The notes under the pieces: generated by a model
Told to the model about the DNA's origin: nothing
The model's database searches: none
What the model saw: only the letters and a program-made list of their open reading frames with translations
Position numbers and translations under genes: made by a program
Part shown: in pieces, positions 3,530-43,401 of the stretch
Numbering within the stretch: position 1 is the stretch's first letter
How the letters are laid out: each line of letters opens with the position of its first letter
NCBI GenBank assembly: GCA_043805415.1
Contig: JAZDHZ010000033.1
Coordinates: 89,600-153,599 of the forward strand
DNA from: Candidatus Omnitrophota bacterium
Lineage (GTDB): Bacteria > Omnitrophota > Gorgyraeia > B26-G9
Reading direction: 5' to 3'
Length of the DNA: 64,000 bases

Positions 3530-4774
3530 ATGATTTATCATCGGTTAATAACCAATAAAATAGTTGCGCGTTTATCAGATCCTGATATTCTTATCTTAGT
3601 TGGGGCGAGACAAGTGGGAAAAACAACGATATTAAGGCAGATAAAAGAGTCTTTATCTTCTAAAGGAGAACAGACAGAATTTATTAATCTTGAAGATTTA
3701 GAATATGTGAAATTATTAGATGAAAGCCCTAAAAATCTATTCAAAATAATAGCTTTGCCGGAGAAAAAGAAGATTTTTGTTTTTGTTGATGAAATCCAAT
3801 ATCTTAAAAATCCAACTAATTTCCTGAAATATATTTATGATGAGTTTAAGGATAAAGTTAAGCTTATTGTCTCGGGATCGTCAGCGTTTTATATTGATGA
3901 AAAATTTAAAGATTCACTTGCGGGAAGAAAAATTATATTTCCCGTCCATACTCTCAGTTTGCCGGAAATGCTTATTTTTCAGGGGCATGAGGATTTAGCC
4001 GAAAAAACAGCGTTTAAAATAAGGTCTAAGAATATATTCTTGGAGGATTTTCCGCTTAAGGAAAAAGAAAAGGTTACTGCTTGTATCAACAGTCTTCTTA
4101 TCTTTGGAGGGTATCCTCGGGTTGTTTTAGAAAAAGATGTTTCCAGGAAAAGGGAGATAATAGAAGAAATAGCTTTATCTTATATAAAAAAAGATGTGCT
4201 GGAAGCAAATATTAAGAGAACTAATAAGTTTTATGAACTTTTTAAACTGCTAAGTTCTCAAGTAGGAAGCTTGCTTAATGTTAATGAACTTTCTAATACA
4301 CTTAATATATCTCAGACTTCCTTAAATAATTATTTGCATGTAATGAGAAAGTCGTTTCATATTGTTCTTATTCGGCCGTTTTATAAGAATTTGAGGAAAG
4401 AATTAACTAAAATGCCCAAGCTATATTTTATGGATTTGGGATTGAAGAATTTTTTTCTTAAAGATTTTACCCCGCTTGCCTTGCGTGAAAATCCTGGGTT
4501 TTTATACGAAAATTTTATATTTAAGCAATTCGCGGAATTGTTTTCCCTTGACGATATAAAATTTTGGAGGACACAAACTGGTAACGAAACAGATTTTATT
4601 TTAGAAAATAAAACAGCTTGTGAAGTAAAATATAATATTAATAATTTTTCAGTGGCAAAGTATAAAATGTTTTTGAATAGTTATGATGATTTTACTCTAA
4701 ATGTAATATATCATACAGGGATAGTTAAAGATAATGTCCTTAAAGATAAGCGGTTCAATTTTATAAGACTGTAA
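3530..4774 (+). CDS. AAA+ superfamily ATPase (AAA_14 / DUF4143 type, COG1373-like)
   Basis: Walker A ILILVGARQVGKTT and Walker B-like FVFVDEIQY. The C-terminal region is typical of DUF4143 ATPases. Confidence 0.7.
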   Translation: MIYHRLITNKIVARLSDPDILILVGARQVGKTTILRQIKESLSSKGEQTEFINLEDLEYVKLLDESPKNLFKIIALPEKKKIFVFVDEIQYLKNPTNFLKYIYDEFKDKVKLIVSGSSAFYIDEKFKDSLAGRKIIFPVHTLSLPEMLIFQGHEDLAEKTAFKIRSKNIFLEDFPLKEKEKVTACINSLLIFGGYPRVVLEKDVSRKREIIEEIALSYIKKDVLEANIKRTNKFYELFKLLSSQVGSLLNVNELSNTLNISQTSLNNYLHVMRKSFHIVLIRPFYKNLRKELTKMPKLYFMDLGLKNFFLKDFTPLALRENPGFLYENFIFKQFAELFSLDDIKFWRTQTGNETDFILENKTACEVKYNINNFSVAKYKMFLNSYDDFTLNVIYHTGIVKDNVLKDKRFNFIRL

Positions 4775-8245: not shown

Positions 8246-8754
8246 TTGGCATATTTTTATTAAATAGGGTATAATTATTATGTAATATGAGTACAACTAA
8301 ATTTCCAAAATGCGATTTATGTTGTAACCATAATTAGAAAAAGGCAAACCTCACGTGAGTGGGGGGCGTCCCAAGAGTCGGATGGATTAAGTAAGACAAA
8401 GGGACCTTGAAAAAAAAGAACGCTATAATATATAAAATATTTTTCAAGGCAAAGCTACGGGTCTAAAAGGGAAAATTGTAAATGGATTTTATTTGTTTTC
8501 AAGTTAGATAGCCGGGCTACCGAAAAATGGTGAACAATATTCCAACCGAACTATCTGGGACAGATGGATCGGTTTTATTTTATATAGGGTTTGAAAATGC
8601 AGAAGGCAATTAATATCTGCAGAAAGGAGGCGCAACTGATAAAATAAACCTGCTGATTTTAGGTTTGTGGGGTCAGAAGCAGTCCTATAATCAGTCAAAC
8701 TGGGAATAAACAACATGGATAAAATTTTAGAGCGAAATTCTTGGGGAAGAATTA

Positions 8755-8790
8755 GCTTGACAGGAAAACATTGTTTTGATAAATATATAT
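8755..8790 (+). promoter_or_regulatory. Putative sigma70-type promoter (TTGACA-N17-TAAATA) upstream of the orphan pilin gene
   Basis: A TTGACA hexamer sits about 55 nt upstream of the pilin ATG with a 17-nt spacer to a TA-rich -10 element. The GGAGG RBS follows. Confidence 0.35.
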
Positions 8791-8810
8791 ATATAACTGG
8801 AGGAAATAAA

Positions 8811-9224
8811 ATGAATAGAAAAGGTTTTACACTTGTTGAACTTTTGATGGTAGTTATCATCATTGGTATATTGGTAACGTTGGCTGTTCCAAGTTATTAT
8901 AAGTCAATTGAAAGAGCAAAAGGCGGTAAAGCAAAATCATCTTTACGTACTATCACTAATGCTCAAATACAGTATAGAGCGCTTAATGATACATATGTTA
9001 ATGGTGCTGATTTAACTTTATTAGCTGATGTTGATTTGCCTGCGGAATTACAGGATGGAGCTACTGGAGATGGAGATTGGACATATGCATGTACTTCTAC
9101 TGATATCACTGCGGATGTTCTTACTACAGCTACAAGAAATCTTGGGCCTTATGCTGGTGATACTGTAACAATGGATCAAGATGGCTTCTATATTAATGTT
9201 GATGCCCATCAAGAATGGAACTAA
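8811..9224 (+). CDS. pilA: type IV pilin / prepilin-type N-terminal cleavage-methylation domain protein (candidate major pilin); start refined to the internal Met after a GGAGG RBS
   Basis: Class III signal peptide: MNRKG|FTLVELLMVVIIIGILVTLAVPSY (G-F cleavage site, Glu at +5, hydrophobic alpha1 helix). The track ORF 8715-9224 has an unlikely 5' extension. Confidence 0.8.
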   Translation: MNRKGFTLVELLMVVIIIGILVTLAVPSYYKSIERAKGGKAKSSLRTITNAQIQYRALNDTYVNGADLTLLADVDLPAELQDGATGDGDWTYACTSTDITADVLTTATRNLGPYAGDTVTMDQDGFYINVDAHQEWN

Positions 9225-9260: not shown

Positions 9261-9322
9261 TGATGCCACTGATTTATTCGTTTAAAGATTTATTAAATGA
9301 ATAAATCAGTGGTTTTTTTAAA
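9261..9322 (+). terminator. Rho-independent terminator after the pilin gene
   Basis: Perfect 14-bp inverted repeat ccactgatttattc ... gaataaatcagtgg followed by tttttttt. Confidence 0.75.
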
Positions 9323-9380: not shown

Positions 9381-10487
9381 ATGCGGATAATTGCGGTAGC
9401 TAATCAAAAAGGCGGTTGCGGTAAAACAACGACATCAATTAATTTATCTGCTTGTTTAGCCGCGCTTAAAAAAAATGTTTTGTTAATAGACTTAGATCCA
9501 CAGGGACACGCGAGTTTGGGGTTAAATATCCAGCCGCAGGATTTATCAAAAACCATATATAATGTATTGACCACAGATAGCGAAGCCAAATTCCGGCTTG
9601 ATGAAGTTATTATCCCTATATCTGAAAATCTTGATCTGGCTCCGGCAAATATTTTGTTATCCGCGATTGAGCAGGAACTGTCTGGAAAACCAGAAAGAGA
9701 AGCAAAATTATTTCAAGCAATATCTTTAATGGTAAGTAAAAAAACATATGATTATGTAATTATTGATTGCTCTCCAAGTTTGGGTCTTTTGACTTTTAAT
9801 GGATTGCGTGCTGCTACTGAACTGATTGCTCCGGTGGACACTGGATTTTTCTCTTTGCATGGCATAAGCCGTTTACTGGAAACTGTCAATCTTATTGATA
9901 AACGCTTGAATTGTCAGATAAAAGTAAAAGCATTGATCACAATGTTTGATTCCAGAACTAAATTTTCCCATGAAGTAAAAGACGAAATTTATAAATATTT
10001 TTCAGGCAATGTTTTTGAAACAGTAATTCATAATAATGTTAGAGTAAAAGAATCTTCAAGCTATGGGGTACCTGTCGCGGCTTATGATAAGCGCTGCCGA
10101 GGGGCACAAGATTACAGCGCATTAGCCAATGAAGTTGAATCTCCGATGAGCAAGGAAAAAGCTAAAGATAAAACCAGCAGCGCTTCTGAGAAAATAACAT
10201 CTTTTATTCAGGAAGTACAGCAGGTCAAAAAAGGCACAGTAGTTACTTTTAATTCTCTGGACGCGAAAAATGTTGAAATTGCCGGTGATTTTAATAACTG
10301 GGTTAGTTCGGTTGATACTAAACTTGAACGGATTGATAATGGTGTATGGGCTAAAGTGATTCATCTTAAACCCGGTGCTTATAAATATAAATTTGTTGTT
10401 GATGGACAATGGATAACTGATCCCAATAATCCTAAGCTGGAAATTGACGAAGTAGGTAATAAAAATTCGATTTTAGAAGTTAAATAA
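9381..10487 (+). CDS. Soj/ParA-family P-loop ATPase fused to a C-terminal CBM48 (AMPK beta glycogen-binding-domain-like) carbohydrate-binding module
   Basis: Deviant Walker A NQKGGCGKTTTSINLSACLA...LLIDLDPQGHAS is almost Soj-like. The C-terminal 90 aa (VVTFNSLDAKNVEIAGDFNNWVSS...YKYKFVVDGQWITDPNNPK...NSILEVK) closely parallel the AMPK beta GBD/CBM48 signature GSFNNW...YKFFVDGQW.HDP...NNIIQVK. Confidence 0.85.
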   Translation: MRIIAVANQKGGCGKTTTSINLSACLAALKKNVLLIDLDPQGHASLGLNIQPQDLSKTIYNVLTTDSEAKFRLDEVIIPISENLDLAPANILLSAIEQELSGKPEREAKLFQAISLMVSKKTYDYVIIDCSPSLGLLTFNGLRAATELIAPVDTGFFSLHGISRLLETVNLIDKRLNCQIKVKALITMFDSRTKFSHEVKDEIYKYFSGNVFETVIHNNVRVKESSSYGVPVAAYDKRCRGAQDYSALANEVESPMSKEKAKDKTSSASEKITSFIQEVQQVKKGTVVTFNSLDAKNVEIAGDFNNWVSSVDTKLERIDNGVWAKVIHLKPGAYKYKFVVDGQWITDPNNPKLEIDEVGNKNSILEVK

Positions 10488-10507
10488 AAAAACTAGGATT
10501 ATGGTTT

Positions 10508-11425
10508 ATGAATAAATTAAAGAAGTTGGGTAAGGGATTAGAAGACATTTCCTATTTGTTTCTTTCTCCGGAGCAAGAAGATACTATTCAAGAAGAGTCC
10601 ATGGCTGAAAAAAAGAAAATTTTAACTGAAACTATTGAGATTACGACAAAAAACATTTGTTTAATCGGCAATAGCCATGATTCGCGAGATGCTTTTTTAG
10701 TGATTAATTTATCATTAGCTTTGGCTAGACTGGGGATGCGTATCGCGGTAGTTGATATGGATGAGAAGCTTCCTTGTCTAAATTTTTTATTAGGAAAAAG
10801 CGCTAACAATGGATCGCAAAATAATGATCAGGAAATTGTTCGCCAAGGGCCTTTTGGCGTAAAGCTGGCAGGGCTAAATGAGTCTCTGCTTGAAAATATG
10901 TTGGTTGATTCTGTTGCTAGAAAAACAATTATGCTGGAACTGAAAAAAATGGAAGAAGAAGTTGATCTTGTGCTGATTAGTGTATCACAAGATAGCCTTT
11001 ATTATATGAATCCATTGCTTAGAAAATCAATAGAAGAATTTCTAGTTTTTGTTTCTCCGGATAAAAACTCAATGCTTAATTCTTATAAAGTTGTAAAAAC
11101 CATTTTTTCTAATAACCCGGTTGCTAAAATTGGTACGATTATAACTGATATTGAACACATGTATGAAATTGACGCGGTGTTTAATAAAATGTTTTCCGCG
11201 GTAAAGAAATTTCTGGTTAAAGAGCTGTATAAATATGGATTTCTTTTTAAACTAAAACAGGAAATTAATAACAACGCGAATATCGCTTCTTTTTATGACG
11301 CGGATTTGACGGCTTGCATCTCAAATATCGCGCAGATTATTATATTGCGCTTGAACCTTGCGGAAAATGTTAAATCAAGCGGGGAATTATTTAAAAATGT
11401 TTTTAATGAGTTTGGGATAAATTGA
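10508..11425 (+). CDS. ParA-fold protein with degenerate (inactive) Walker A and an N-terminal ParB-like LGKGLEDISYLFL peptide
   Basis: Residues about 50-100 (ICLIGNSHDSRDAFLVINLSLALARLGMRIAVVDMDEKLP) align to the ParA P-loop region, but KGGxGKT is replaced by GNSHDSRD. A Walker B-like VDLVLISVSQDS is retained. N-terminal KKLGKGLEDISYLFLS resembles the ParA-activating N-terminal peptide of ParB/Spo0J (GLGKG..AL). Confidence 0.55.
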   Translation: MNKLKKLGKGLEDISYLFLSPEQEDTIQEESMAEKKKILTETIEITTKNICLIGNSHDSRDAFLVINLSLALARLGMRIAVVDMDEKLPCLNFLLGKSANNGSQNNDQEIVRQGPFGVKLAGLNESLLENMLVDSVARKTIMLELKKMEEEVDLVLISVSQDSLYYMNPLLRKSIEEFLVFVSPDKNSMLNSYKVVKTIFSNNPVAKIGTIITDIEHMYEIDAVFNKMFSAVKKFLVKELYKYGFLFKLKQEINNNANIASFYDADLTACISNIAQIIILRLNLAENVKSSGELFKNVFNEFGIN

Positions 11426-11432
11426 GGCTGTT

Positions 11433-12128
11433 ATGACAACGATATTTCACAACGCGCAAATTAATAAAGAAAAACTCAGACAGATTATTTTAAAAAATCC
11501 GCAATCTCTGCTCGCGGGATTAAGTTTTATTGATTTAGAGATGGCTACGGATGAGTCTGGAGTCATTGATTTCTTAGGAGTGGATATAACTGGGCGCATG
11601 GTGGTTGTGAATTTTGATACCCAGGCTAATGACCAGATGCTCATAGAAATATTGTCTCAAATTCAATGGCTCAAAAAAAATGAAGGATTAATCAAAAGGT
11701 TATTTTTTAGTGAGAGCGTGGATTTTGAACAAGCGCCTCAAATGCTTTTGGTTTGTCCTGTTTTTTCCAATAAAATCCAATCAGCGGTAAAACAATTGAC
11801 GGATAAAGATATAAAACTTTTAAAATTTAAATATATTGTCTCAAACGCTGATGACGCGATAATCTTTGACGAGGTATTTTCCAGTATAAATTCAGCCTCC
11901 GCGCCAGCTTTAAAAACTCAACTATCAACTGACCGGGAAAGTATAATGGTTGATCGCGCTGCTTTAACCAAGCACGCGCCGCTAATTAAAAAGACGGTAT
12001 CAGAAATAAGTGAAGACGCGAAAAAAGAACAATCTCCCCTATATGATGTGATTACTCTTACGCCGGAAGAGATTACGGAATTCATGGATTTTAATATAGC
12101 CTTGGCACAGAGCCAAGCAGCTGATTAA
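11433..12128 (+). CDS. hypothetical protein (no recognisable domain); coding likely from position in the operon and start overlap context
   Basis: A 231-aa ORF that starts 8 nt after the upstream stop. No motif could be assigned by eye. Confidence 0.4.
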   Translation: MTTIFHNAQINKEKLRQIILKNPQSLLAGLSFIDLEMATDESGVIDFLGVDITGRMVVVNFDTQANDQMLIEILSQIQWLKKNEGLIKRLFFSESVDFEQAPQMLLVCPVFSNKIQSAVKQLTDKDIKLLKFKYIVSNADDAIIFDEVFSSINSASAPALKTQLSTDRESIMVDRAALTKHAPLIKKTVSEISEDAKKEQSPLYDVITLTPEEITEFMDFNIALAQSQAAD

Positions 12129-12231
12129 GAATAAAACTCTAACCGATTATATAGCTGATCAAATCCTAAATTAAAACCTGCCTGATAATGATTATTAAAT
12201 TTACTACGCAAGTTCTTAGAGGTGAGAAAAT

Positions 12232-12987
12232 ATGCAAGGTGTAAATAGATCATCATCGATCTATAAAATAAATAATTTACTTCCAAACAATATTATATCC
12301 GCTTTTTCCATAGGGAAATTAAATTATGATTATCGTGCTGGGAATGAAAGTGAAGTTCTAAAAAATAGAAAAGATTTTTTTTATCAAGCAGGACTTGCGC
12401 TTGATACTGCTGTTTTTCCCCAACAAGTTCATAAAGCAAACATTCTAAAGGTTGAGCAAAAAGACAAAGGACGTGGCGCGTTTTCTTTCGCGCAGGGCAT
12501 CCCCCAAACAGACGCGTTGATAACTAACGCGAAAGGGATCGCGCTCTGCCTGCTTAGCGCTGATTGTTTGCCGATTATTTTCTATGAAGCAAATGGCAGG
12601 GCAATTGGGATCGCGCATGCCGGATGGCGGGGAATACACGCGGGGATAATTGAAAAAACAATCTTGGCCATGGCCAATGAATTCGCGATTAATCGCGAAG
12701 ATATTAAAGCGTTTTTTGGCCCGGCGATAGGGAGCTGCTGCTATGAAGTTGGCCCTGAGTTTTTAGATATTTTTCCTGAGAATATTAGCGCGCGAAATAA
12801 TAAAACATACCTGGATATTAAAAGCTTAGCTCGGATAAAATGTCTTAGTTCTGGGATTTTTCAGGATTCAATAAATGACGTATCTATTTGTACCAAATGC
12901 AGTAATGACACATTTTTCTCTTATAGATCCGGAGATAATCTCAATCGCCTAATCAGTATTGTGGCTATTGGTGAGCAATGCGGATAG
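12232..12987 (+). CDS. pgeF: peptidoglycan editing factor PgeF / YfiH (DUF152, laccase-domain purine nucleoside phosphorylase family)
   Basis: Family-typical motifs CLLSADCLPIIFYE, IGIAHAGWRG, GPAIGSCCYEVG, and a C-terminal Cys cluster. Confidence 0.8.
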   Translation: MQGVNRSSSIYKINNLLPNNIISAFSIGKLNYDYRAGNESEVLKNRKDFFYQAGLALDTAVFPQQVHKANILKVEQKDKGRGAFSFAQGIPQTDALITNAKGIALCLLSADCLPIIFYEANGRAIGIAHAGWRGIHAGIIEKTILAMANEFAINREDIKAFFGPAIGSCCYEVGPEFLDIFPENISARNNKTYLDIKSLARIKCLSSGIFQDSINDVSICTKCSNDTFFSYRSGDNLNRLISIVAIGEQCG

Positions 12988-13046
12988 ATAGCAATTTCCG
13001 GCTTAGGGAGCTATTTTTTATTTTGACTAATTATCTGCTTGACATT

Positions 13047-13080
13047 TATATGTATCTGTAGTAATTTCTTTAAATAGATA
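13047..13080 (+). promoter_or_regulatory. Putative promoter (TTGACA ... extended -10 TGTAGTAAT) for the Lys-rich protein gene
   Basis: The hexamers sit about 16 nt apart in the AT-rich region upstream of 13105. Confidence 0.3.
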
Positions 13081-13104
13081 ATATCTTTTAAATTAACTAA
13101 AAAA

Positions 13105-14988
13105 TTGAAAAATATGACAAAAAAAATAAGTTTCAAAAAACAAGCAAAAGCTAAAAATACTGTTGCGAAGAAAATTAAAACAGTAGAAAAAAAAGCTTTA
13201 AAAATCAAGGTTGTGAAAACTGCGAAGCCTGCGCGCAAAAAATTAGGTAAGGGCTTGGAAGATATCTCAACCTTGTTTTTGTCTGATATTAAAAAAGACG
13301 CGGTAATTGCTAAGAAAAAAACAATAAAATCCGCGGCTAAAAAAAGTGTAATGCCAAAGGTTAAAAAAGTAAAAAGCGCAAGTGTTAAGACATTAGGCAT
13401 TGCTATAAAAAAATCTCCTAAAAAAATCATTGCAAAGGTTGCTAAAAAACCAGCGGCAGCAAAGGAAATCGTTGCTAAGACTATTGCAAAGGTTGAAACA
13501 AAACCAGCAGTATTAAAGGAAATCGTTGCGCATAAGACTATTGCAAAGGTTGAAACAAAACCAGTGGCAGCAAAGGAAATCGTTGCGCATAAGACCATTG
13601 CAAAGGTTGAAACAAAACCAGCAGTATTAAAGGAAATCGTTGCGAATAAAACTATTGCCAAGGTTGAAAAAAAGGCAACTGCAGTAAATGATAATGTTCC
13701 TAAAAAAACTGTTGCTAAACTTGCTAAAAAAATAGCTGTAGTAAAGGAAAGTATCCCGGAAAAAGTAATCGCGCGTGTTGATGCGAAATTAGACGCGGCA
13801 AAGGATAAAAATCCTGAGAAAACTATGGCTTTAACTGATAAAAAAACTGTAAAAGAGACAACAGGTAAAACACTTGAAAAAATTGCAGTAAAACAAGAAG
13901 AAGCAAAACAAGCAACTTCCAAACCAATTATGAAAATAACAGAGGTGGTAGGGATGGGAACGTTAAAAAAGTCTTCGAAAGCGGTTAAAAAACCAAAGCA
14001 GGATAAACCAGCAGAAAAAAAGAGTACTAAAACAAAAGAGAATAAAAAAACACAAACCTTAGGCCCAATCAGTGATCTGAAGACTTTGTTTAAGAAGAGA
14101 AAAACAGCCGGATTAACTGTTGAGCCGCAGAATATTCAAACAGAGCAAGTTATTGAGGATAGCAAATTTTTTGTTAGTAAGGAAACTGTAAGTCGGATCG
14201 CGGAAGATGAATTTTGTGATTTGCCTGAAGGCTACGGTGATAATAGAATTGTTATTCAGGTTAGGGATCCGTATTGGTTATTTGCTTATTGGGAAGTTTC
14301 TCAGAGAAAATTAAGTTCAGTTGTGGAGAAATATGGTAGTGCTATCCATAACGCAAAAAGAGTACTACGGGTTCATGATATTACATCGGTTGCATTCAAT
14401 GGAAAGAATTCAAACAGTTTTTTTGATATAGCGATTAATGATGTTGCCAAGAACTGGTATGTAAATGTCGGCAATCCTGGGAGAAGTTATTGTATTGATC
14501 TGGGGCTTGTCTTAGCTGATGGGCGTTTTGTCGTGTTTGCTCGTTCAAATTTTGTGACAACTCCGATTGATGGCCCAAGTCTAATAACTGATGAAGAGTG
14601 GATGATTGTTGAAGATGATTTTAACAAGCTTTATGGATTATCTGCTGGATTGGGGATTGGCCTGAGTTCCGGAGAGTTGAGAAGACAAATAAAAACAAAG
14701 ATGAAGAATTTATCATCAGGGATATTGAGTTCACCTGGGGTGACAACAGTGTCTCCGCGTCGTAATTTTTGGATGGTTGTCAATACTGAGCTAATAGTTT
14801 ATGGAGCAACTCAACCAGGTTCTGAACTTACAGTGCAGGGAAAACCGATTAAATTAAATGAAGATGGAACATTTAGTCTTCGTTTTGCCTTGCCTGATGG
14901 AGAGCAGGTCATTCCGGTTCGGGCGGTTTCTCCGGATAAGGTTGAAGAACGGGTAATTACTCCTGTGGTCAAAAAAAACACGGTGTAA
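13105..14988 (+). CDS. Lys/Ala-rich (histone H1-like) protein with a ParB-like LGKGLEDISTLFL peptide, four ~20-aa tandem repeats and a C-terminal DUF4912-like globular domain + beta-sandwich tail
   Basis: Residues 40-60 ARKKLGKGLEDISTLFLS match the motif of the 10508 protein. Repeats KEIVAHKTIAKVETKPAVL x4. C-terminal RIVIQVRDPYWLFAYWEVS...NWYVNVGNPGRSYCIDLG looks like the DUF4912 signature. The opposite-strand ORF 13011-13922 is a low-complexity artefact. Confidence 0.6.
   Translation: MKNMTKKISFKKQAKAKNTVAKKIKTVEKKALKIKVVKTAKPARKKLGKGLEDISTLFLSDIKKDAVIAKKKTIKSAAKKSVMPKVKKVKSASVKTLGIAIKKSPKKIIAKVAKKPAAAKEIVAKTIAKVETKPAVLKEIVAHKTIAKVETKPVAAKEIVAHKTIAKVETKPAVLKEIVANKTIAKVEKKATAVNDNVPKKTVAKLAKKIAVVKESIPEKVIARVDAKLDAAKDKNPEKTMALTDKKTVKETTGKTLEKIAVKQEEAKQATSKPIMKITEVVGMGTLKKSSKAVKKPKQDKPAEKKSTKTKENKKTQTLGPISDLKTLFKKRKTAGLTVEPQNIQTEQVIEDSKFFVSKETVSRIAEDEFCDLPEGYGDNRIVIQVRDPYWLFAYWEVSQRKLSSVVEKYGSAIHNAKRVLRVHDITSVAFNGKNSNSFFDIAINDVAKNWYVNVGNPGRSYCIDLGLVLADGRFVVFARSNFVTTPIDGPSLITDEEWMIVEDDFNKLYGLSAGLGIGLSSGELRRQIKTKMKNLSSGILSSPGVTTVSPRRNFWMVVNTELIVYGATQPGSELTVQGKPIKLNEDGTFSLRFALPDGEQVIPVRAVSPDKVEERVITPVVKKNTV
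13445..13685 (+). repeat. Four tandem copies of a 60-bp coding repeat inside the Lys-rich gene
   Basis: aaggaaatcgttgcgcataagactattgcaaaggttgaaacaaaaccagc... is repeated head-to-tail with a few substitutions. Confidence 0.85.
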
Positions 14989-15020
14989 GTGCTGGAATCC
15001 TTTAACATGCTTTTTAATCG

Positions 15021-15058
15021 CGCCGGAATGAGTATTAACATTCCGGCGTTTTATTTTT
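15021..15058 (+). terminator. Rho-independent terminator after the Lys-rich/DUF4912 gene
   Basis: cgccggaatg-agtattaa-cattccggcg followed by ttttattttt. Confidence 0.8.
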
Positions 15059-15185
15059 AGCAGTCAAAATCGCTTGAATTCTTCAGAGTACTATGCTAGT
15101 ATAAGAATGTTATTTTAAATTAATTATAAACCTTAAATCTTAAAGGTTTTCCGCAAAAAAGCCACTGGGTATTATAGGGGAAAAT

Positions 15186-16766
15186 ATGGAAAAAGGATAT
15201 CTTTGTATTGTTTTACATGGGCATTTACCTTTTGTTCGTCATCCTGAGCACGCGAATTTCTTAGAAGAAGAATGGCTTTACGAGGCTATAACTGAGACAT
15301 ATATTCCATTGCTTAGTATATTTGATAAGTTGATAGAAGACGGAGTTAATTTTCGGATTACCATGGGTGTATCTCCGCCATTAATATCAATGCTTCTTGA
15401 TCCTTTATTGCAGCATCGTTACATAATGCATATAGAGAAATTAATCGAATTGGCAAGTCGTGAGGTTGAAAGAACAAGATGGCAGCCGGAATTTAATAAG
15501 CTGGCTTTAATGTATCTAAGTAAATTTAATCTTGCCCGATATTATTTTGCCGAAAAACACCGGGGAAATCTTTTAGAGGCATTTAAAAGAATTCAGGATG
15601 CCGGAAGATTAGACATCATGACTTGCGGCGCTACGCATGGGTTTTTCCCATTGATGGATACATGTAGAGATTCAATTCGGGCACAGGTAAGAGCCGCGGT
15701 TGAGCAATATAAAAAAGTATTTCAGCGTCAACCAAAGGGCATTTGGCTGCCTGAGTGTGGATATCATCCTGGTGACGATGAAATCCTGCGGGAAAACGGA
15801 TTAAGATATTTCTTTAGTGATACCCATGGGGTACTTCATGGTACTCCGCGGCCCAAATATGGTGTTTTTGCTCCGGTTTTTTGTAAGTCCGGAGTTGCTT
15901 GCTTTGGACGGGATCTGGAGTCTTCAAAACAGGTTTGGAGCGCTAAGCAGGGATATCCTGGAGATTACAATTACCGGGAATTCTATCGGGATATTGGTTT
16001 TGATCTTGATTTTGATTATATAAAACCGTATATTCATCCAGATGGAATCAGAACAAATACAGGAATAAAATACTATCGGATTACCGGGGAAACCGATAAT
16101 AAACAGCCGTACAATCAAGATGTTGCTATGCAAACAGCGGCATCGCACGCGTCTAATTTTATGTTCAACCGGGAAAAACAGGCGGAGTATGTGAAGGACA
16201 TAATAAAAAGAAAACCGATTATTGTCGCTCCCTATGACGCGGAGTTATTTGGACACTGGTGGTATGAAGGCCCGGATTGGCTTAATTTTTTAATTAGAAA
16301 AATTGCTTTTGATCAAAAAAATATCAAACTTATTTCGCCATCGGATTACTTAGATGAATATCCGAAAAATCAAGTTATTACACCTTCACTTTCCAGTTGG
16401 GGATATAAAGGTTATGCCGAGTTTTGGCTGGAAGGTTCAAATGCCTGGGTTTACAGGCATTTACATAAAGCTTCTGAGCGGATGAGTGAATTAGTTAAGC
16501 TTTATCCCAATGCCGGCGGTTTGACGCTTAGGGCGCTGAACCAGGCTTTGCGTGAAGTATTACTTGCCCAAAGTTCTGACTGGGCTTTTATTATGAAAAC
16601 CGGGACACATGTTTCTTATGCTGTGGATAGAACCAAAAAACATGTGCTTAATTTTACAAAATTATACAATCAGATAAAGGCAGATAATATTAAAGAACAG
16701 TGGCTGAGTGAAATTGAGTCAAAAGATAATATATTTCCTGACATTGATTATCATTACCATTCTTAA
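15186..16766 (+). CDS. glycoside hydrolase family 57 protein, 1,4-alpha-glucan branching enzyme type (DUF1957-containing)
   Basis: N-terminal GH57 signature YLCIVLHGHLPFVRHPE and ...CGATHGFFPLM match Thermus/Thermococcus GH57 branching enzymes. Length about 525 aa. Confidence 0.88.
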   Translation: MEKGYLCIVLHGHLPFVRHPEHANFLEEEWLYEAITETYIPLLSIFDKLIEDGVNFRITMGVSPPLISMLLDPLLQHRYIMHIEKLIELASREVERTRWQPEFNKLALMYLSKFNLARYYFAEKHRGNLLEAFKRIQDAGRLDIMTCGATHGFFPLMDTCRDSIRAQVRAAVEQYKKVFQRQPKGIWLPECGYHPGDDEILRENGLRYFFSDTHGVLHGTPRPKYGVFAPVFCKSGVACFGRDLESSKQVWSAKQGYPGDYNYREFYRDIGFDLDFDYIKPYIHPDGIRTNTGIKYYRITGETDNKQPYNQDVAMQTAASHASNFMFNREKQAEYVKDIIKRKPIIVAPYDAELFGHWWYEGPDWLNFLIRKIAFDQKNIKLISPSDYLDEYPKNQVITPSLSSWGYKGYAEFWLEGSNAWVYRHLHKASERMSELVKLYPNAGGLTLRALNQALREVLLAQSSDWAFIMKTGTHVSYAVDRTKKHVLNFTKLYNQIKADNIKEQWLSEIESKDNIFPDIDYHYHS

Positions 16767-16772
16767 AAACAA

Positions 16773-16990
16773 AAGCAGTTATGAATTACTAGTTATGAGT
16801 TACGAGTGAAAAGCAAAGAGCTGAAACAGTTCGTAAAGGCCAAAGGTCAATATTCAATAGCTAATGGTCGATAGAAAAAAAAGAAAGAAAAAAGCATATT
16901 GAATTATTTATCATTTAGTGTTTTTTCGCGATACGCGATACGCGCGACGCAATACAGAAAACAGAAGACAAATGTTTTCTGTTTTCTTTA
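16773..16990 (+). repeat. Composite intergenic repeat element, copy C (AGCAGTTATGAATTACTAGTTATGAGTTACGAGTGAAAAGCAAAGAGCTGAAACAGTTCGTAAAG + CGCGATACGCGATACGCGCGACGCAATACAGAAAACAG hairpin module)
   Basis: Shares both modules with copies at 6543-6622 and 8131-8245. Ends in the inverted repeat cagaaaaca...tgttttctg. Confidence 0.7.
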
Positions 16991-23732: not shown

Positions 23733-25385
23733 ATGGCTTTTTTTAGAACCACCGTAGGTCTATATATAGGTCCTAAAACTGTACAAATTGCCCAAATGCA
23801 AGCAATCGCGGGTAAGATACAGCTAACCAATTTTGTTCATGTCGATATATTCGATGGAGAACAATCCGAATCAGCCGATAAAGAGGCGCTGATTCTCTCT
23901 GCCCTCAAAAAAGCGGTAAATAAATCAAAAATTGATCTTAAAAGAGTTAATACAGTATTAATGCCAGGTATGGTATTATTACGTTATTTTCAAATGCCGA
24001 GAATTAGCGCCGAAGAGCTTGAAGAGGCGGTAAGATTTGAGGCAAGAAAATATATTCCTTTTCGTTTAGAAGAAGCGGTAACTGGTTTTTACATTCTGAA
24101 AGAAGATCAGGAAAAGAAAAAACTGGGAATCCTTTCTTTAGTAACAAAAGAAGAATCAATTAAAAACCACCTGACAATTCTCCATAAAGTTGATATCCAG
24201 CCAACGGCTGTGGAAACTGCCTCTTTTGCTTTGCTGCGTCTTTTGGAATATTCTGGAGATATCGAAAGAGATAAATCTAACGCGGTTTTGTATCTTTATG
24301 CCCAAAGAATAAATATTATAATCCTTAGAAACAGTATCCCTTATTTCGTGAGAGATATTTCTTTGGCAAAAAAAGAAGAATGGATAGATGACGAAACTGC
24401 TGAATTTTTAATGGGAGGAAAGATTAGTTCCGCTGACAGCCGGATAGTAACTCTGGAAAATATGATCAGTGAATTACGTATTTCTTTTGAATATTATAAA
24501 AAAGAGTTGGGAAAAGAAAATGTAAGTAAGATGATTTTGTGCGGAGAAGTTGATGATTTTGATGATTTAGAGCTTGTGAGCAAAGCTGCTCAAGATCAGC
24601 CGGATAATCCTTGTCCCTTGAGTGTGTTTTTAGAAAAACAATTTGATATCCCAGTTAGATTGGTTGATCCGCTAAAGAATATTGTTAGCCCTAAGGCAAA
24701 ACCCTTGCCGTATACTTTCCCAATGCTTGCCGTTACTATTGGGGCCGCTTTAAGAAACTTAAGTAAATCTACTGTGGAAATAGATCTTTTTCGTGCCAGA
24801 AAAAAAACAAGTTTAAAGGCTAAAGTCCTTATTACGAAAATGATCGGCATGGAAGTTGGCGCGCTTTTAGTTTGTTTTATTATTATGTTTATAGTATCTT
24901 CGGTGTTTATTTCCAGAGAAAATAATTTGCTGGAACAAGAAAAAAGATCAGCGCCAAAATTTATGGATTTAAGCCATTTTAGTGAAGATCAGTTAAAAAC
25001 GGGTGAGCAGGAAATAAAACAGAGAATTAATGCTTTTAATAAAATTGTTACAAATAGGTTTGTAGTCACTGATAAATTAAGCGCTTTATCAAAAATAATT
25101 CCTGATGGAATTTGGATGGATAAGTTCATTTTTTTAGTTTCGGCTAAAGAAAAAAATTATGTTGATCGTAGTCTTGAGCTTTCGCTATCGGGTTTTATTT
25201 ATACTGATCAAAAAGGTATGGAAATTGAAATGGTGAATGATTTTACTGAGGCATTAAAATCAAACGATTTGTTTTTTAGCGATTTTAAAGTAATAAAAAC
25301 TGGCTCAGTTGCCCGCGAAACATTTTACGCGATACCGGTTATGACTTTTGAATTGACATGCTTTTCTAAGGCTGGAGAAAAATAA
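23733..25385 (+). CDS. pilM: type IV pilus assembly protein PilM (actin-like ATPase fold) fused to a PilN-like TM/coiled-coil module
   Basis: N-terminus MAFFRTTVGLYIGPKTVQIAQ is typical of PilM. A TM helix (VGALLVCFIIMFIVSSVFI) at about aa 375 is followed by a PilN-like periplasmic region. Length of 550 aa exceeds the usual ~350 aa for PilM alone. Confidence 0.75.
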   Translation: MAFFRTTVGLYIGPKTVQIAQMQAIAGKIQLTNFVHVDIFDGEQSESADKEALILSALKKAVNKSKIDLKRVNTVLMPGMVLLRYFQMPRISAEELEEAVRFEARKYIPFRLEEAVTGFYILKEDQEKKKLGILSLVTKEESIKNHLTILHKVDIQPTAVETASFALLRLLEYSGDIERDKSNAVLYLYAQRINIIILRNSIPYFVRDISLAKKEEWIDDETAEFLMGGKISSADSRIVTLENMISELRISFEYYKKELGKENVSKMILCGEVDDFDDLELVSKAAQDQPDNPCPLSVFLEKQFDIPVRLVDPLKNIVSPKAKPLPYTFPMLAVTIGAALRNLSKSTVEIDLFRARKKTSLKAKVLITKMIGMEVGALLVCFIIMFIVSSVFISRENNLLEQEKRSAPKFMDLSHFSEDQLKTGEQEIKQRINAFNKIVTNRFVVTDKLSALSKIIPDGIWMDKFIFLVSAKEKNYVDRSLELSLSGFIYTDQKGMEIEMVNDFTEALKSNDLFFSDFKVIKTGSVARETFYAIPVMTFELTCFSKAGEK

Positions 25386-25389
25386 TTTA

Positions 25390-25926
25390 ATGGCTATTAA
25401 AAAGATTATTCCACGCGAAATACAACAGGTTTTTATTGTTGGAGCAGTTATTTTTTTGTTTTTATTTTTTTGGGGTGGGCGTGTTTTGCAAAAATATCAT
25501 GACACGCAAATTATGAAGATAAGAAAACAGCGCAAAAGAGTTGAACTTGAAAATGCGGTTGCTGTGCAATTAAGTAAATTGAAAAAGCTTAAAGAAGAAA
25601 TAACAATTATTAATGAAAGTTCACGCTTTTTGGCTGAAATTGCTAAAATGTCTGGACAGCTTAATTTGAAGATTACTTCGATATCAGCGGTTCCTATTGA
25701 AAAGCGTGATGAGTTTATCAAATTAGGAGTAAGTATGGACATTGATACTACCTATCATGAGCTAGGGGTTTTTATGAGCAAACTTGAGTCAGCAGAACTA
25801 TTTATAACTGTTGAAAAATTAGAAATGATTTCTACTATGGGTAAAAATCCCGCGGAAGCGCCAAGGGTAAATGCCAAAATGAATCTTACAACTTTTGTTT
25901 TAACAGATACTATTTTGGAGAGATAA
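25390..25926 (+). CDS. pilO: type IV pilus assembly protein PilO-like (single TM + coiled coil + periplasmic domain)
   Basis: Position between pilM/N and pilP-pilQ. An N-terminal TM (VFIVGAVIFLFLFFWG) followed by predicted coiled coil. Confidence 0.55.
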   Translation: MAIKKIIPREIQQVFIVGAVIFLFLFFWGGRVLQKYHDTQIMKIRKQRKRVELENAVAVQLSKLKKLKEEITIINESSRFLAEIAKMSGQLNLKITSISAVPIEKRDEFIKLGVSMDIDTTYHELGVFMSKLESAELFITVEKLEMISTMGKNPAEAPRVNAKMNLTTFVLTDTILER

Positions 25927-26474
25927 TGCGTAAAATTCTATTATTAGTTTTAGCATTAATCCTGGTTTTTTCTAGCAGCGATTCTTCTATTGCAGCGCCT
26001 GCTAAAAAGCCAGTTGCTAAAAAACCAGTTGCCAAAAAACCAGTTGCCAAAAAACCAGTTGCTAAAAAAGGCGCTGTTGAAGAAGTTGATAAAGACGTTG
26101 GTAAAGACGTAAAAAAAGAAAAATACAAATCCAGAAGTGAAATTAAATATACTGGTTTTGATTCTAAAAGGGATCCTTTTTCGCCTCCTGAAGTTGTTGT
26201 TAAGATGTTAGAAAAACCGGAAGGGATTCCTGGGGCTGAAATCTTGGCCAAGGATATTAAACTGCCTGCGATTGATTTGCAGGGAATTATTTGGTCAAAA
26301 AATATTCCACAGGTGATTATTAATGGCGGGGTGATGAAGGTGGGAGATTTCATTGAGGAGTTTGAAATAAAAGAAATTCGCAGAACTGGTATAATTTTAT
26401 TTTTTAAGGGCAATGATTATTTTATAAAAATGGTTGGTTATACCCAGAAAAATACGAAAAAGAAAAAAAGATAA
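25926..26474 (+). CDS. pilP: PilP-like pilot/periplasmic protein with signal peptide, (AKKPV)4 tandem repeat and a C-terminal beta-domain
   Basis: Signal peptide MRKILLLVLALILVFS. DPFSPP motif. C-terminal LQGIIWSKNIPQVIINGGVMKVGDFI resembles the PilP core. Lies immediately upstream of the secretin, with a 1-nt taATG overlap with pilO. Confidence 0.5.
   Translation: MRKILLLVLALILVFSSSDSSIAAPAKKPVAKKPVAKKPVAKKPVAKKGAVEEVDKDVGKDVKKEKYKSRSEIKYTGFDSKRDPFSPPEVVVKMLEKPEGIPGAEILAKDIKLPAIDLQGIIWSKNIPQVIINGGVMKVGDFIEEFEIKEIRRTGIILFFKGNDYFIKMVGYTQKNTKKKKR
25996..26065 (+). repeat. 15-bp tandem repeat x4-5 (gctaaaaaaccagtt) encoding (AKKPV)n in pilP
   Basis: Direct repeats are visible in the sequence. 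The antisense ORF 25910-26413 is a repeat artefact. Confidence 0.8.
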
Positions 26475-26484
26475 GGAGCTAGAA

Positions 26485-28128
26485 ATGAAAAGGATTTTTG
26501 CGATACTGATTATGTTGTGGCTGAATTTAGCTTTTTTGATGAGTATCCATCAACCTAGTTTTGTTTTTGCCCAAGCTCAGACAGAATATGCGATAGAGGA
26601 TGATTCAGCTGTTGCTGAGGCTGATGATAAAGGTTTGGTTTCTTTAGATTTTAAAGATGCTGATCTAAAAGATGTTTTAAAAGTTTTTTCTCAGCAGTCG
26701 GGTCTAAACTTTGTCGCGGCCAAAAACATAGAAGATAGAGCGATAACTCTGTATATGAATGATGTTTTAGTGGAAGATGCTTTAAAGACTTTGTTAGACG
26801 CGAATAATTTAGGGCTTGAGCAAAATCCAGGCAGTAATATTTTGATTGTCAACGCTAAGCCGACCCTGCCAATCCAAACCATCACTCGAGTTTATAAAGT
26901 TCGATATTATCATGGTAATGTTTCTCCGGGTACTTACCTTTTAACTGAAGGTAAAAATAAGGAAACTAGAGGATCTGGAGATTGGAAAGATATTATTAAG
27001 CCTTTATTGAGTGAGTTTGGGGTTGTGATTGATTATACGAATATCTTAATAATTACAGATGTGCCTGACCGATTTAAACTTATTGATCAAGTAATCAGCG
27101 AAATTGACCGTCCGATTCCTGAAGTAATGCTTGAGGTTGAATTAATTGAAACAACCTCTAATTTTCTGAAAAAAATTGGAATGGAGTGGAGTGAGCAAAT
27201 GATGACATTTTCCGGAGCTTCAACTATTACAGCTTTTCCATTTGTTACAGAAGGTCGCTCGCGTGCGGCTCCAGGTTTTACCACATTGATTACTCCCTTA
27301 GCTAAAGAAGGAGCTTTTTTTAGTTACGGGCTTTTAGATTCAAGTGTTATGCAGTGGACGATGAGGATGTTGCAGACTGATACCAATACAAAGTTTCTCT
27401 CAAAACCAAGAATTCTTGTCCAGGACCGAGAGTGGGCGGAAATTAAAGTAACAGCTGATCAAATTGTTTCCGTGCAATCAACTGTTGATAATGAAACCGG
27501 AGATGTTACAACAAAAGTTGAAAGAATGGAAGTTGGAACAATTTTACGCCTAGTTCCGATTATTAACGCGGAAGAGGGATTTGTTTCAATTCTTTTAGAA
27601 CCAAGTATTTCCCGTCCGGTTCAGTCAGTATTTAAATCTATTGATGATACTAATTTCGTTGATCCGCATTCAAGAAGTATGCGTACTGTAGTGATGTCGC
27701 GTGATGGAGAAACAATAGCAATCGGTGGTTTTATTACAACTGAAGATCAAGAAGTAAAGACTAAAGTGCCTTGGCTGGGAGATTTGCCGCTTCTCGGTAT
27801 GTTTTTCCGTCATACTTCAAATGACCGGGTGGATAAGGAATTGCTGATTTTTGTTACGCCAAGAATTGTAAATCCTTCTGAGAAAGTGGAAATGTGGATG
27901 AGTGATAGTTTTAACAAAGGAGTGCTTGAGCATGCTCAAGGCCGTGAACAATCCGCATCTGCGCCGACGCAAGATAATAATAAAGTTTTAGTAAAGAAAG
28001 GTGATTCTGAAGCGAAAGAAACATCTTTAAATGATATGCCTTTTAGAGAACAGGAAGAAACAATAGACAGTAGTATTGATTTAACTTTACAGAGTTCAAG
28101 TTTGACTACCGTTGATTTAATAAAATAG
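26485..28128 (+). CDS. pilQ: type IV pilus secretin PilQ; start refined to the Met after an AAGGAG RBS
   Basis: Signal peptide MKRIFAILIMLWLNLAFL. N0/secretin_N region (VSLDFKDADLKDVLKVFSQQSGLNFV). C-terminal secretin motif (GETIAIGGF...LLIFVTPRIV). Confidence 0.8.
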   Translation: MKRIFAILIMLWLNLAFLMSIHQPSFVFAQAQTEYAIEDDSAVAEADDKGLVSLDFKDADLKDVLKVFSQQSGLNFVAAKNIEDRAITLYMNDVLVEDALKTLLDANNLGLEQNPGSNILIVNAKPTLPIQTITRVYKVRYYHGNVSPGTYLLTEGKNKETRGSGDWKDIIKPLLSEFGVVIDYTNILIITDVPDRFKLIDQVISEIDRPIPEVMLEVELIETTSNFLKKIGMEWSEQMMTFSGASTITAFPFVTEGRSRAAPGFTTLITPLAKEGAFFSYGLLDSSVMQWTMRMLQTDTNTKFLSKPRILVQDREWAEIKVTADQIVSVQSTVDNETGDVTTKVERMEVGTILRLVPIINAEEGFVSILLEPSISRPVQSVFKSIDDTNFVDPHSRSMRTVVMSRDGETIAIGGFITTEDQEVKTKVPWLGDLPLLGMFFRHTSNDRVDKELLIFVTPRIVNPSEKVEMWMSDSFNKGVLEHAQGREQSASAPTQDNNKVLVKKGDSEAKETSLNDMPFREQEETIDSSIDLTLQSSSLTTVDLIK

Positions 28129-28150
28129 GTGTTTTTACACAGGTGAAATT

Positions 28151-29851: not shown

Positions 29852-29856
29852 AATAT

Positions 29857-29895
29857 TTGTTAAAGCCAGCCTAAAGGCCTCTTATATGGTATAAT
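29857..29895 (+). promoter_or_regulatory. Possible internal promoter with a perfect extended -10 (TGGTATAAT) upstream of pilC
   Basis: tatggtataatat at about 29885-29897 in the 120-bp pilB-pilC spacer. Confidence 0.3.
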
Positions 29896-29972
29896 ATATT
29901 AAAGGCTAAAATCTCAAGTAGCTAAATAATTTGACTTTAGAGTAAAAAATTGTTCAGGAGATATTAACTAGA

Positions 29973-31224: not shown

Positions 31225-31617
31225 ATGAAGAAAAAAGCGTTTACCTTGATTGAATTAATGATAACGGTTATGATTATCGCTATTTTAGTGAGCATTGCTA
31301 TTCCGAATTACATTAATACTGTGGAAAGAGCACGCGCTCGCGAGGCAAGATCAACATTGGAATCCATGCTTGCTGCTGAACGGAGCTATGCTGCTGAGCG
31401 ACGTTCGTTTATTAGTCTGGGAGCAGCTACAACTACTGATTGGCAAGCAATTGGTTTGGAAAATCCGAATCTTAATACCAATAATTCCTGGACATATACC
31501 GGAACAGCAGCTGGGACTAATTTTACCGCGACCGCAACCCGGATTGACGGTCCATATGGTGGAGCTACTATTGATCTTGACCAGGATGGAGCAGAGACAG
31601 TTAGTACTTTTTATTAA
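31225..31617 (+). CDS. prepilin-type N-terminal cleavage/methylation domain protein (pilin or minor pilin)
   Basis: MKKKA|FTLIELMITVMIIAILVSIAIPNY class III signal. The same-strand overlapping ORF 31295-31687 is a frame artefact. Confidence 0.75.
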   Translation: MKKKAFTLIELMITVMIIAILVSIAIPNYINTVERARAREARSTLESMLAAERSYAAERRSFISLGAATTTDWQAIGLENPNLNTNNSWTYTGTAAGTNFTATATRIDGPYGGATIDLDQDGAETVSTFY

Positions 31618-32755: not shown

Positions 32756-32818
32756 ATATTAGTATCAATGGCTTAGGGTTAAGGTTTTTATTCGCGCAAT
32801 TGTCTATAAACGCGGGGA

Positions 32819-43326: not shown

Positions 43327-43401
43327 TGCCCGGTGGTGTAATTGGCAACACGAAAGAATTTGGATCTTTTGTTCATGGTTCGAGTCCATGCCGGGCAGCC
43401 A
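43327..43401 (+). tRNA. tRNA-Gln (anticodon UUG), CCA encoded
   Basis: Hand-folded cloverleaf: 7-bp acceptor stem (U1:A72), D arm gtgt/acac, anticodon stem aaaga/tcttt with loop aTTTGga, T arm catgg-TTCGAGT-ccatg, discriminator G, CCA. Confidence 0.8.

Follow-up and report, generated by a model that had tools for sequence, protein, structure and literature searches.

In the McdAB system, the ATPase McdA does without the signature lysine of the deviant Walker A motif, and its partner McdB acts as the cargo adaptor. This work concerns a locus of six genes (g1 to g6) at positions 9381-16766 of the window, meaning the whole stretch of 64,000 nucleotides from an Omnitrophota contig that was analysed, in which a ParA-type ATPase is fused to a carbohydrate-binding module of the CBM48 family (ParA-CBM48, encoded by g1). 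We read this locus, with a probability of roughly 0.55, as a ParA/MinD-type positioning system that couples glycogen to the nucleoid. As with McdA and McdB, a nucleoid ParA-type ATPase would distribute a non-DNA cargo through self-organising spacing, together with a partner that is basic and disordered at its N terminus (PMC13052382). However, McdA has no cargo-binding domain and contacts its cargo through McdB only, whereas g1 carries CBM48 and keeps the classical ParA signature lysine; in addition, the activating motif is ParB-like, and the cargo would be a polysaccharide rather than a protein shell. Membership of McdAB was rejected for g1, as the signature lysine, K10, is present in each of the 74 distinct ParA-CBM48 sequences, from many phyla, over which residue conservation was scored, and no McdB-like protein was identified.

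The likeness to ParABS systems, such as Soj/Spo0J or the ParA-ParB pair of Myxococcus xanthus (structure 8ray), lies in an ATPase domain that is approximately 45% identical to chromosomal ParA/Soj, in the residues for DNA binding and for the ParB pocket, and in a ParB-like peptide. Yet neither a ParB, with a helix-turn-helix domain and the CTPase motif GERRxRA, nor a parS was found; instead the partners are a pseudo-ParA, a dead NucS-like protein and a protein with DUF4912, the C-terminal half of the peptide is extended and distinctive (EDIS.LFLS), and the ATPase bears the additional CBM48. PomXYZ of M. xanthus also combines one ATPase with two activators that have short N-terminal peptides (PMC13170346), parts that g2 and g5 would play here, although its cargo and partner folds are different and PomZ has no cargo-binding domain. 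A further parallel is provided by tethers of the PhaM, PhaF and AlgP type, which attach polyhydroxybutyrate (PHB) or polyphosphate granules to the nucleoid and keep their spacing even, their loss resulting in fewer, larger or clumped granules (PMC13052382, PMC9239181). These tethers join a granule-binding part to a Lys/Ala-rich tail resembling histone H1, and such tails are found in g5 and other DUF4912 proteins; but no ATPase is known in those systems, whereas g5 has a peptide of the ParA-activating type, is encoded with a ParA, and would serve glycogen as the polymer. No sequence homology of g5 to PhaF or PhaM was detected. The CBM48 subtype is the one found in AMPK beta, the PTST family, SEX4 and LSF1, where a non-catalytic module brings another activity to glycogen or starch, the difference being that it is fused here to a ParA ATPase. 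Finally, were the NucS-like partner to sit on DNA, there would be a purely inferential resemblance to MinD/MinE, with ATPase and activator on one surface and a passenger carried as MinC is by MinD; the nucleoid, and not the membrane, would provide this surface, and g1 has no membrane-targeting helix.

A review from 2025 on how bacteria position their organelles deals with carboxysomes, magnetosomes, and granules of PHB and polyphosphate, makes no mention of glycogen, and raises the combination of ATP-driven positioning with H1-like tethers as an open possibility (PMC13052382). In the literature searched, no description of the ParA-CBM48 architecture was found, nor any paper joining ParA or MinD with glycogen or CBM48, which agrees with the initial annotation of this DNA, where a system whose ATPase itself binds glycogen was held to be undescribed. 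The kind of system is known, as it belongs with ParA/MinD positioning; what is new is the cargo, the cargo-binding ATPase and the partner families. It is probably both widespread and undescribed, with the function of distributing glycogen along the nucleoid.

Profile searches recovered both of the domains that the initial annotation had assigned to g1, a Soj-like ParA with a C-terminal CBM48 of the AMPK beta type (Table 1). The ATPase part matches AAA_31 (E=3.5e-53) and CbiA (E=2.2e-21), and residues 283-368 match AMPK1_CBM (E=3.8e-16) and CBM_48 (E=5e-8), with scores of 59.5 bits for PF16561 against a cut-off of 26.8, and of 33.5 bits for PF02922 against 22.4. The solved structure nearest to g1 is M. 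xanthus ParA (8ray, E=1e-57). The deviant Walker A motif reads KGGCGKT, with the signature lysine kept, and g1 is the sole KGGxGKT protein within the window. The C-terminal domain aligns with the CBM structures of AMPK beta1 and beta2 (E of about 3e-11), its structural matches being, in order, these AMPK modules, a GH13 pullulanase, and the plant phosphatases SEX4 and LSF1.

Among the 74 sequences, W307 of the CBM is kept in all and W344 in 73, K337 is Lys or Arg in 66, N362 is Asn or Asp in 73, and position 358 is hydrophobic or aromatic. W307, W344, K337 and N362 align with W100, W133, K126 and N150 of AMPK beta1, which, together with L146, we take to be the sugar contacts in the beta1-cyclodextrin structure; on the strength of these residues, g1 is predicted to bind alpha-glucan through CBM48. 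In the ATPase, the catalytic residues K10, K15, D37, D39 and D129 are invariant, and the positions for DNA binding are largely kept, with Arg at R192 (the equivalent of Soj R189) in 73/74 and Lys or Arg at R221 (the equivalent of R238 in M. xanthus ParA, MxParA) in 64/74, such that dimers of ATP-bound g1 would be expected to bind nucleoid DNA non-specifically. The residues that contact the ParB peptide, as defined along with the pocket for MxParA (PMC12462528), are similarly retained: L134 (MxParA L150) is Leu, Val or Ile in every sequence, G135 (G151) is Gly in 70, and L136 (L152) is Leu, Ile, Phe, Met or Val throughout. Cys13 of KGGCGKT was discounted as conservation evidence, as its invariance is partly an artefact of the scan pattern, N[QH]KGGCGK.

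The scan that yielded this family covered one genome per species for 185,579 species, and confirmed at least 590 relatives. The best 80 of these were retained, the gene neighbourhoods of 87 loci were clustered by open reading frame (ORF), and 76 loci were scored for what lies downstream; domain identities, the conservation of key residues, the peptide and its position, the repeated association with GH57 and DUF4912, and the lack of a ParB were computed directly. All of the best 80 match the g1 query over residues 1-363 or more, which corresponds to the full fusion, and the best 120 database matches to g1 all carry PF16561, down to 43% identity. Within the best 80 of the at least 590 loci, the fusion occurs in more than ten phyla, the groups bearing it comprising Omnitrophota, Planctomycetota, Myxococcota, Thermodesulfobacteriota, Rokubacteria, Gemmatimonadota, Acidobacteriota, Zixibacteria, Eisenbacteria, Spirochaetes and Bacteriovoracaceae.

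A canonical ParB upstream had been named in advance as a finding that would overturn the proposal, and the GERRxRA motif is absent both from the six-frame translation of the window and from the ORFs of the 87 loci. There was no ParBc match among the 44 window ORFs scanned, at the loci parS was not found and no origin-type context (rsmG, mnmG, dnaA) was seen, and none of 72,556 plasmid records encodes the C-terminal half of the fusion. A plasmid or mobile partition module was rejected on account of this absence from plasmids and of the housekeeping context. The Soj-like character of the ATPase domain could still be accommodated by a standard parAB of a chromosome or plasmid whose ParA happens to be decorated and whose gene order is random, but this is extremely unlikely when neither the window nor the 87 loci encode a ParB, when conservation across phyla extends to the fusion, its partners and the peptide, and when the fusion is missing from plasmids and the locus lies amid housekeeping genes.

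The partner encoded by g2 had been described as a ParA fold with a destroyed Walker A motif and an N-terminal ParB-like peptide, KKLGKGLEDISYLFLS, and both elements were upheld. By itself g2 gives a weak CbiA match (E=1.6e-3); its family profile aligns with that of ParA-CBM48 with an hhalign probability of 95.2% (E=2.6e-8). The KGGCGKTT P-loop of ParA aligns to NSHDSRDAF in g2, hence the Walker A motif has been lost. A Walker-A-like GxxxxGK[ST] loop persists in two distant relatives, which are peptide-bearing ParA-fold partners at loci L015 (3339-4274, SGERVKGKS) and L072 (11089-11946, SGKGVRGKT), and hence g2 derives from a real ATPase. In some lineages this partner may still be an ATPase, giving tandem ParA-like ATPases of which one has an activator peptide.

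The sharing of the peptide between g2 and g5, where it reads KKLGKGLEDISTLFLS, is also real. The two coding stretches differ at most synonymous codon positions, which rules out recent gene conversion between them, and implies that it is selection on the protein that shapes both peptides. In 30 of the 76 loci, here termed type A, the next gene downstream of ParA-CBM48 starts with such a peptide, consisting of basic residues followed by LG(K/R)GL(E/S)(D/E)(I/V)S(H/Q/Y)(L/I/F)FLS, compared with an expected frequency at this position of about 0.01 per locus. A loose form of the pattern has 38 matches in the 2.48 million residues of the six-frame translation of the 87 loci, and 31 of these are sites directly downstream of ParA-CBM48 or the site in g5; hence the pattern exceeds chance. 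The type-A peptide fits the definition of the motif with which ParB binds ParA, that of aliphatic residues around a central Arg or Lys (PMC12462528), and by analogy may trigger ATP hydrolysis by g1. Three different bodies stand behind it, namely a pseudo-ParA, a NucS-like domain, and a Cys-rich protein of approximately 190 amino acids. A pseudo-ParA carrier followed by a separate g3-like protein is found in the window and in L001, L006, L008, L039 and L078, and direct fusion of the peptide to the g3-like domain is found in Rokubacteria, Gemmatimonadales and Vicinamibacterales, and in many of 350 cluster representatives. An N-terminal peptide of the ParA-activating type, first suspected from the window, is in many phyla a conserved mark of the gene that directly follows ParA-CBM48. 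The peptide was looked for in type-B, type-C and unclassified loci, and was not found there.

The third protein had gone unnoticed: five consecutive + strand genes had been counted where the span encodes six, g3 and g4 being overlooked. In the g3 product, a PD-(D/E)xK fold like that of the NucS C-terminal domain is joined by a disordered linker to a conserved helix, LTPEEITEFMDF, at the C terminus. The match is limited to the C-terminal part of NucS, with the N-terminal DNA-binding and dimerisation domain absent, and g3 reads VVVNFD where NucS relatives have VVIELK, such that the catalytic Glu and Lys are replaced; the g3-like forms fused to the peptide read IIDVE or IIDFE at this position. 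Identification of g3 as NucS/EndoMS was rejected, as it has neither the D...E-x-K triad nor the N-terminal NucS domain. In four relatives (P0227, P0230, P0254 and P0264) the catalytic position still carries a motif of the ELK or KVK type, and these proteins may possess nuclease activity. In g3-like forms the fused peptide and the LTPEEIAEFM helix exclude each other, which suggests that g3 uses the helix to dock onto g2, the bearer of the peptide. By prediction, the NucS-like g3 is probably DNA-bound. Very long Ala/Pro-rich linkers are seen in the relatives P0321, P0341, P0344 and P0349, of which P0321, P0344 and P0349 share a conserved C-terminal tail, LKFPKDGVLTRQWMEFLNQMA, that resembles the LTPEEIAEFM helix of g3. 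ParA-CBM48, a carrier of the peptide and a NucS-like domain make up the conserved core of the system, to which DUF4912 and GH57 are tied recurrently, but not universally.

Sequence analysis finds in g5 the protein features that had been claimed of it, namely a Lys-rich, H1-like protein with the same peptide and a C-terminal DUF4912. A Lys-rich leader is followed by the peptide, an H1-like Lys/Ala-rich region that contains the repeats, DUF4912 and a C-terminal beta-sandwich (Table 1). The start is most likely the ATG at 13114, as supported by the match to the deposited protein P0165. DUF4912 is recognised by PF16258 (E=7.9e-38; 129.8 bits against a cut-off of 29.4) and the beta-sandwich is Glucodextran_B-like (E=6e-6), and the N-terminal 340 amino acids contain 26-37% Lys with a pI above 10. 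The repeat of 57 bp (19 amino acids) is present in 4-6 copies at 78-86% identity, with the unit (I/V)AKVE(T/K)KP(A/V)..KEIVA.KT; the length of the Lys-rich and repeat region differs widely among g5 homologues, relatives ranging from approximately 345 to 620 amino acids. The peptide is kept behind a Lys-rich leader in the DUF4912 homologues P0166, P0169-P0176 and P0179, which share 42-71% identity with g5, and is absent from the other DUF4912 proteins compared; on DUF4912 it is specific to one Omnitrophota subclade. Homologues outside this clade (P0185, P0191, P0192, P0199 and P0201) have Rho_N/SAP-like or HC2 H1-like N termini, two DUF4912 relatives match PF07382 (H1-like), and the joining of a DNA-binding-type N terminus to DUF4912 seems to be a general design of the family. 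DUF4912 is mentioned in passing only in the literature searched.

The GH57 alpha-glucan branching enzyme reported to follow is encoded by g6, which has GH57 (PF03065, E=6e-39) and BE_C (PF09210, E=2e-41). Its nearest structure is Thermotoga maritima AmyC (2b5d, E=8e-167), with WLPECGY and DAELFGHWW aligned, and 3n8t and 1ufa are matched as well; AmyC has been reclassified as a branching enzyme in a published study (PMC6616209). The g6 product falls below the NCBIfam equivalog cut-offs (342 against 1000 bits). Synteny of ParA-CBM48 with glucan genes had been set as a test of the glycogen hypothesis, and a GH57 gene lies within 10 kb in 20/76 loci, compared with a chance expectation that we estimate at less than 1% per locus for a gene that usually occurs once per genome.

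The linkage occurs in at least four arrangements rather than as one inherited block. Firstly, the window and L001 have ParA, pseudo-ParA, NucS-like, PgeF, DUF4912 and GH57. Secondly, L008, from a Thermodesulfobacteriota metagenome-assembled genome (MAG), has an operon of a GT5-like synthase, DUF4912 and GH57 that is convergent with the module. Thirdly, L072 has DUF4912-GH57 approximately 8 kb upstream. Fourthly, a clade of 28 type-B loci from Omnitrophota and Planctomycetales has the order alginate-export-like porin, GH57 branching enzyme, membrane protein of approximately 190 amino acids, ParA-CBM48, DUF4870-like membrane protein, a protein with a Lys-rich N terminus and a beta-barrel like domain 2 of EF-Tu, and DUF134. 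Examples are L020, L022, L024, L026-L029, L033, L035, L036, L038, L040, L045, L053, L075 and L081 (such as L026:6268-13970), and the Lys-rich beta-barrel protein (c2) is a candidate activator in these loci. At L136 and F139, positions that align with or adjoin the loop contacting the ParB peptide, type A has L and F, in place of which I/F and I/V occur in type B. Omnitrophota MAGs are reported to encode glycogen synthesis (PMC8542988).

This linkage could also be viewed through plant biology, where the CBM48 proteins PTST2 and PTST3 deliver substrates for starch-granule initiation. By likeness, the locus would be a spatial organiser of glycogen synthesis, setting the site and number of glucan initiations by recruiting or activating GH57 and a synthase on the nucleoid. 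The specific association with a branching enzyme and DUF4912, and in L008 with a GT5-like synthase, would suit such a role, as would the precedent of PhaM, which both tethers granules and activates PhaC (PMC13052382). However, the interaction with the enzymes is putative, and the polymer-binding residues of CBM48 fit the binding of existing glucan equally well, and we regard an organiser of synthesis as decidedly unlikely.

Under the favoured reading, of a system that positions glycogen on the nucleoid, we infer from these data the binding of glucan and of DNA, the stimulation of the ATPase and the outcome in the cell. The g1 protein would form ATP-dependent dimers on nucleoid DNA, as its intact catalytic motifs and conserved Soj/ParA DNA-binding residues suggest, and would simultaneously grip glycogen particles with the sugar-stacking residues of CBM48. 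The peptide +LG(K/R)GLEDIS.LFLS would then dock in a hydrophobic pocket on the edge of the dimer and switch the ATPase on, by analogy with ParB and in line with the conserved pocket residues. Two carriers would present it: the pseudo-ParA g2, accompanied by the nuclease-dead NucS-like g3, and g5, with its H1-like tail and beta-sandwich domains. By repeated binding, and release triggered by the peptide, glycogen would be spread over the nucleoid, kept from coalescing, and passed on to both daughters.

Several observations weigh against this reading. Firstly, 26 of the 30 type-A loci have no nearby glucan gene, and a regular-expression search of the 87 neighbourhoods for the GT5 (KTGGL) and GT35 (EASGTxNMK) motifs found none, the lone GT5-like synthase of L008 lacking the classic motif and being detected by Pfam only. 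Secondly, no partner with the peptide can be recognised in about half of the loci, namely those of types B, C and 'none'. Thirdly, the DUF4912 fold is a generic FN3-like beta-sandwich for which glucan binding is putative. Fourthly, the universal partner domain, which is NucS-like, looks DNA-binding rather than glycogen-binding, and the activator may consequently be located on the matrix and not the cargo, unlike in ParABS or McdAB. Finally, all of the evidence is computational, and the retrieved homologues all come from MAGs or metagenomes.

Both the NucS-like fold and the tail resembling histone H1 point to DNA, hence the ATPase and its activators could share the nucleoid as their matrix, with glycogen as a passenger of ParA. 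In such an inverted logic, the ATPase would be the glycogen adaptor, its activators would be held on DNA by the NucS-like domain and the H1-like tail, and patterning would resemble that of MinDE; this is possible, though less likely than not. The earlier proposal of a cargo-positioning ParA system for polyglucan is supported computationally, whereas its division of roles, with the ATPase on the nucleoid and the activator on the cargo, may differ.

The main rival goes further, making DNA itself the cargo of a glycogen-sensing system for DNA partition or nucleoid organisation, in which the NucS-like partner is a non-canonical analogue of ParB. CBM48 would then be an AMPK-like sensor or sequestration site that tunes ParA to carbon reserves, for instance by delaying segregation or division, or by parking ParA. 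Direct fusion of the peptide to the NucS-like domain in several phyla is a ParB-like layout, the g1 ATPase is as similar to chromosomal Soj/ParA as it is to the ParA-CBM48 of other phyla, and the scarcity of glucan genes at type-A loci would be expected. Yet partition of DNA leaves unexplained both the repeated adjacency of GH57 and the gain and retention of the peptide on DUF4912, the standard neighbour of GH57, and it is at odds with the want of any origin-type context, parS or ParB, and of plasmids with the fusion. We judge it to be unlikely.

As to the layout of the locus, gaps of 20 nt between g1 and g2, and of 7 nt between g2 and g3, mean that these three genes are tightly coupled. A hairpin scan found no terminator-like structure between g1 and g5, hence these genes may form a single transcription unit. 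The claim that g5 has its own promoter and terminator was half right: a terminator-like hairpin follows the gene, but promoter-like sites number 31 against 32.4 expected, which is the level of chance. The g4 gene occupies the same position solely within Omnitrophota relatives, and is probably a passenger.

Table 1. Features of the glycogen-linked ParA locus and its transcription signals (positions in nucleotides of the window, unless given as amino acids, aa).
Feature	Position	Strand	Description or support
Terminator of pilin-like gene	9266..9312	+	Strong intrinsic-terminator-like hairpin, 20-pair stem then T-run; start mark of the g1 transcription unit
g1, ParA-CBM48, 368 aa	9381..10487	+	AAA_31, CbiA, AMPK1_CBM and CBM_48 profile matches
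g1 ATPase domain	aa 1-255		Soj-like, deviant Walker A
g1 linker	aa 256-285		Variable
g1 CBM48	aa 287-368; 10239-10484		AMPK-beta-type
g2, pseudo-ParA, 305 aa	10508..11425	+	Weak CbiA match; family profile-profile alignment
g2 N-terminal peptide KKLGKGLEDISYLFLS	10520-10567	+	Followed by ParA/MinD fold without Walker A
g3, NucS C-terminal-domain-like PD-(D/E)xK fold, 231 aa	11433..12128	+	
g4, PgeF/YfiH (Cu-oxidase_4)	12232..12987	+	E=9e-60; TIGR00726 over cut-off
g5, Lys-rich DUF4912 protein, 624 aa	13114..14988	+	DUF4912 profile match
g5 peptide RKKLGKGLEDISTLFLS	13234-13284		
g5 19-aa repeats	13416-13750		
g5 DUF4912	14233-14589		
g5 C-terminal beta-sandwich	14791-14961		
Terminator-like hairpin 3' of g5	15020..15049	+	11 pairs, 7 G-C, then T-run
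g6, GH57 alpha-glucan branching enzyme, 526 aa	15186..16766	+	GH57 and BE_C profiles; WLPECGY, DAELFGHWW
Terminator-like hairpin 3' of g6	16956..16987	+	

Immediately 5' of ParA-CBM48 lies a type IV pilin-like gene (N_methyl, ComP_DUS-like) in the window (8715-9224), L001 (9444-9854) and L006 (9293-9667), and the window has a cluster of type IV pilus and type II secretion genes (PilM, secretin, T2SSE and T2SSF) at 23733-31208, such genes also lying upstream in L006. Two g3 relatives (P0223 and P0257) have an N-terminal domain that looks, by eye, to be of the PilZ type, and a PilZ gene is encoded two genes upstream of ParA-CBM48 in L002 (8956-9336) and L003 (2791-3171); these domains and genes hint at an input from cyclic di-GMP. 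Such neighbours could indicate another cargo, whether the type IV pilus, the type II secretion system or a complex linked to cyclic di-GMP, with the CBM48-like domain as a protein-interaction module and GH57 adjacency as hitch-hiking. This is very unlikely, however, given that the pilin adjacency is confined to Omnitrophota, that sugar-contact residues unneeded for pure protein interaction are conserved across phyla, and that the GH57 linkage occurs in several independent arrangements.

The window is a chromosomal piece of an Omnitrophota MAG, and the rest of it is housekeeping in character, with ManC, isoprenoid genes, ProRS, the pilus and secretion genes, lipid A genes, GlmU, Prs, DnaB and BamA. 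A protein at 43438-44703 was considered as GlgC, and is GlmU. One ORF at 54047-55354 scores 500.9 bits, where the cut-off is 465, with the model for a bifunctional LpxC-FabZ fusion (NF009667), and there are two tRNA genes, for Gln (43327-43401) and Thr (57157-57229). GC skew is strongly positive across positions 1-64000, at approximately +0.2 per 2-kb window, and all but two of the long ORFs (31601-33742) are on the + strand, which together fit a leading-strand segment of a replichore. An AAA_14/DUF4143 ATPase at 3530-4774, amid sugar-nucleotide genes, is missing from the syntenic region of L001, and hence is possibly a small insertion.

What controls how many glycogen particles bacteria have, how large these are, where they lie and how they are inherited has so far been essentially unaddressed. 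Were the favoured reading true, the principle of ParA/MinD positioning would reach a polysaccharide cargo, and there would exist a ParA that binds its own cargo directly. A role would follow for DUF4912, for the NucS-like partner and for the peptide-bearing pseudo-ParA families, and ATP-driven positioning would be joined to the H1-like tethers known for PHB and polyphosphate granules. The ParA-CBM48 family is found in lineages with culturable members, namely Planctomycetota and Myxococcota. If the logic is inverted, with glycogen as the passenger and the activators on DNA, the locus would represent an unrecognised organelle-like partition system for the commonest bacterial carbon store, in more than ten phyla.

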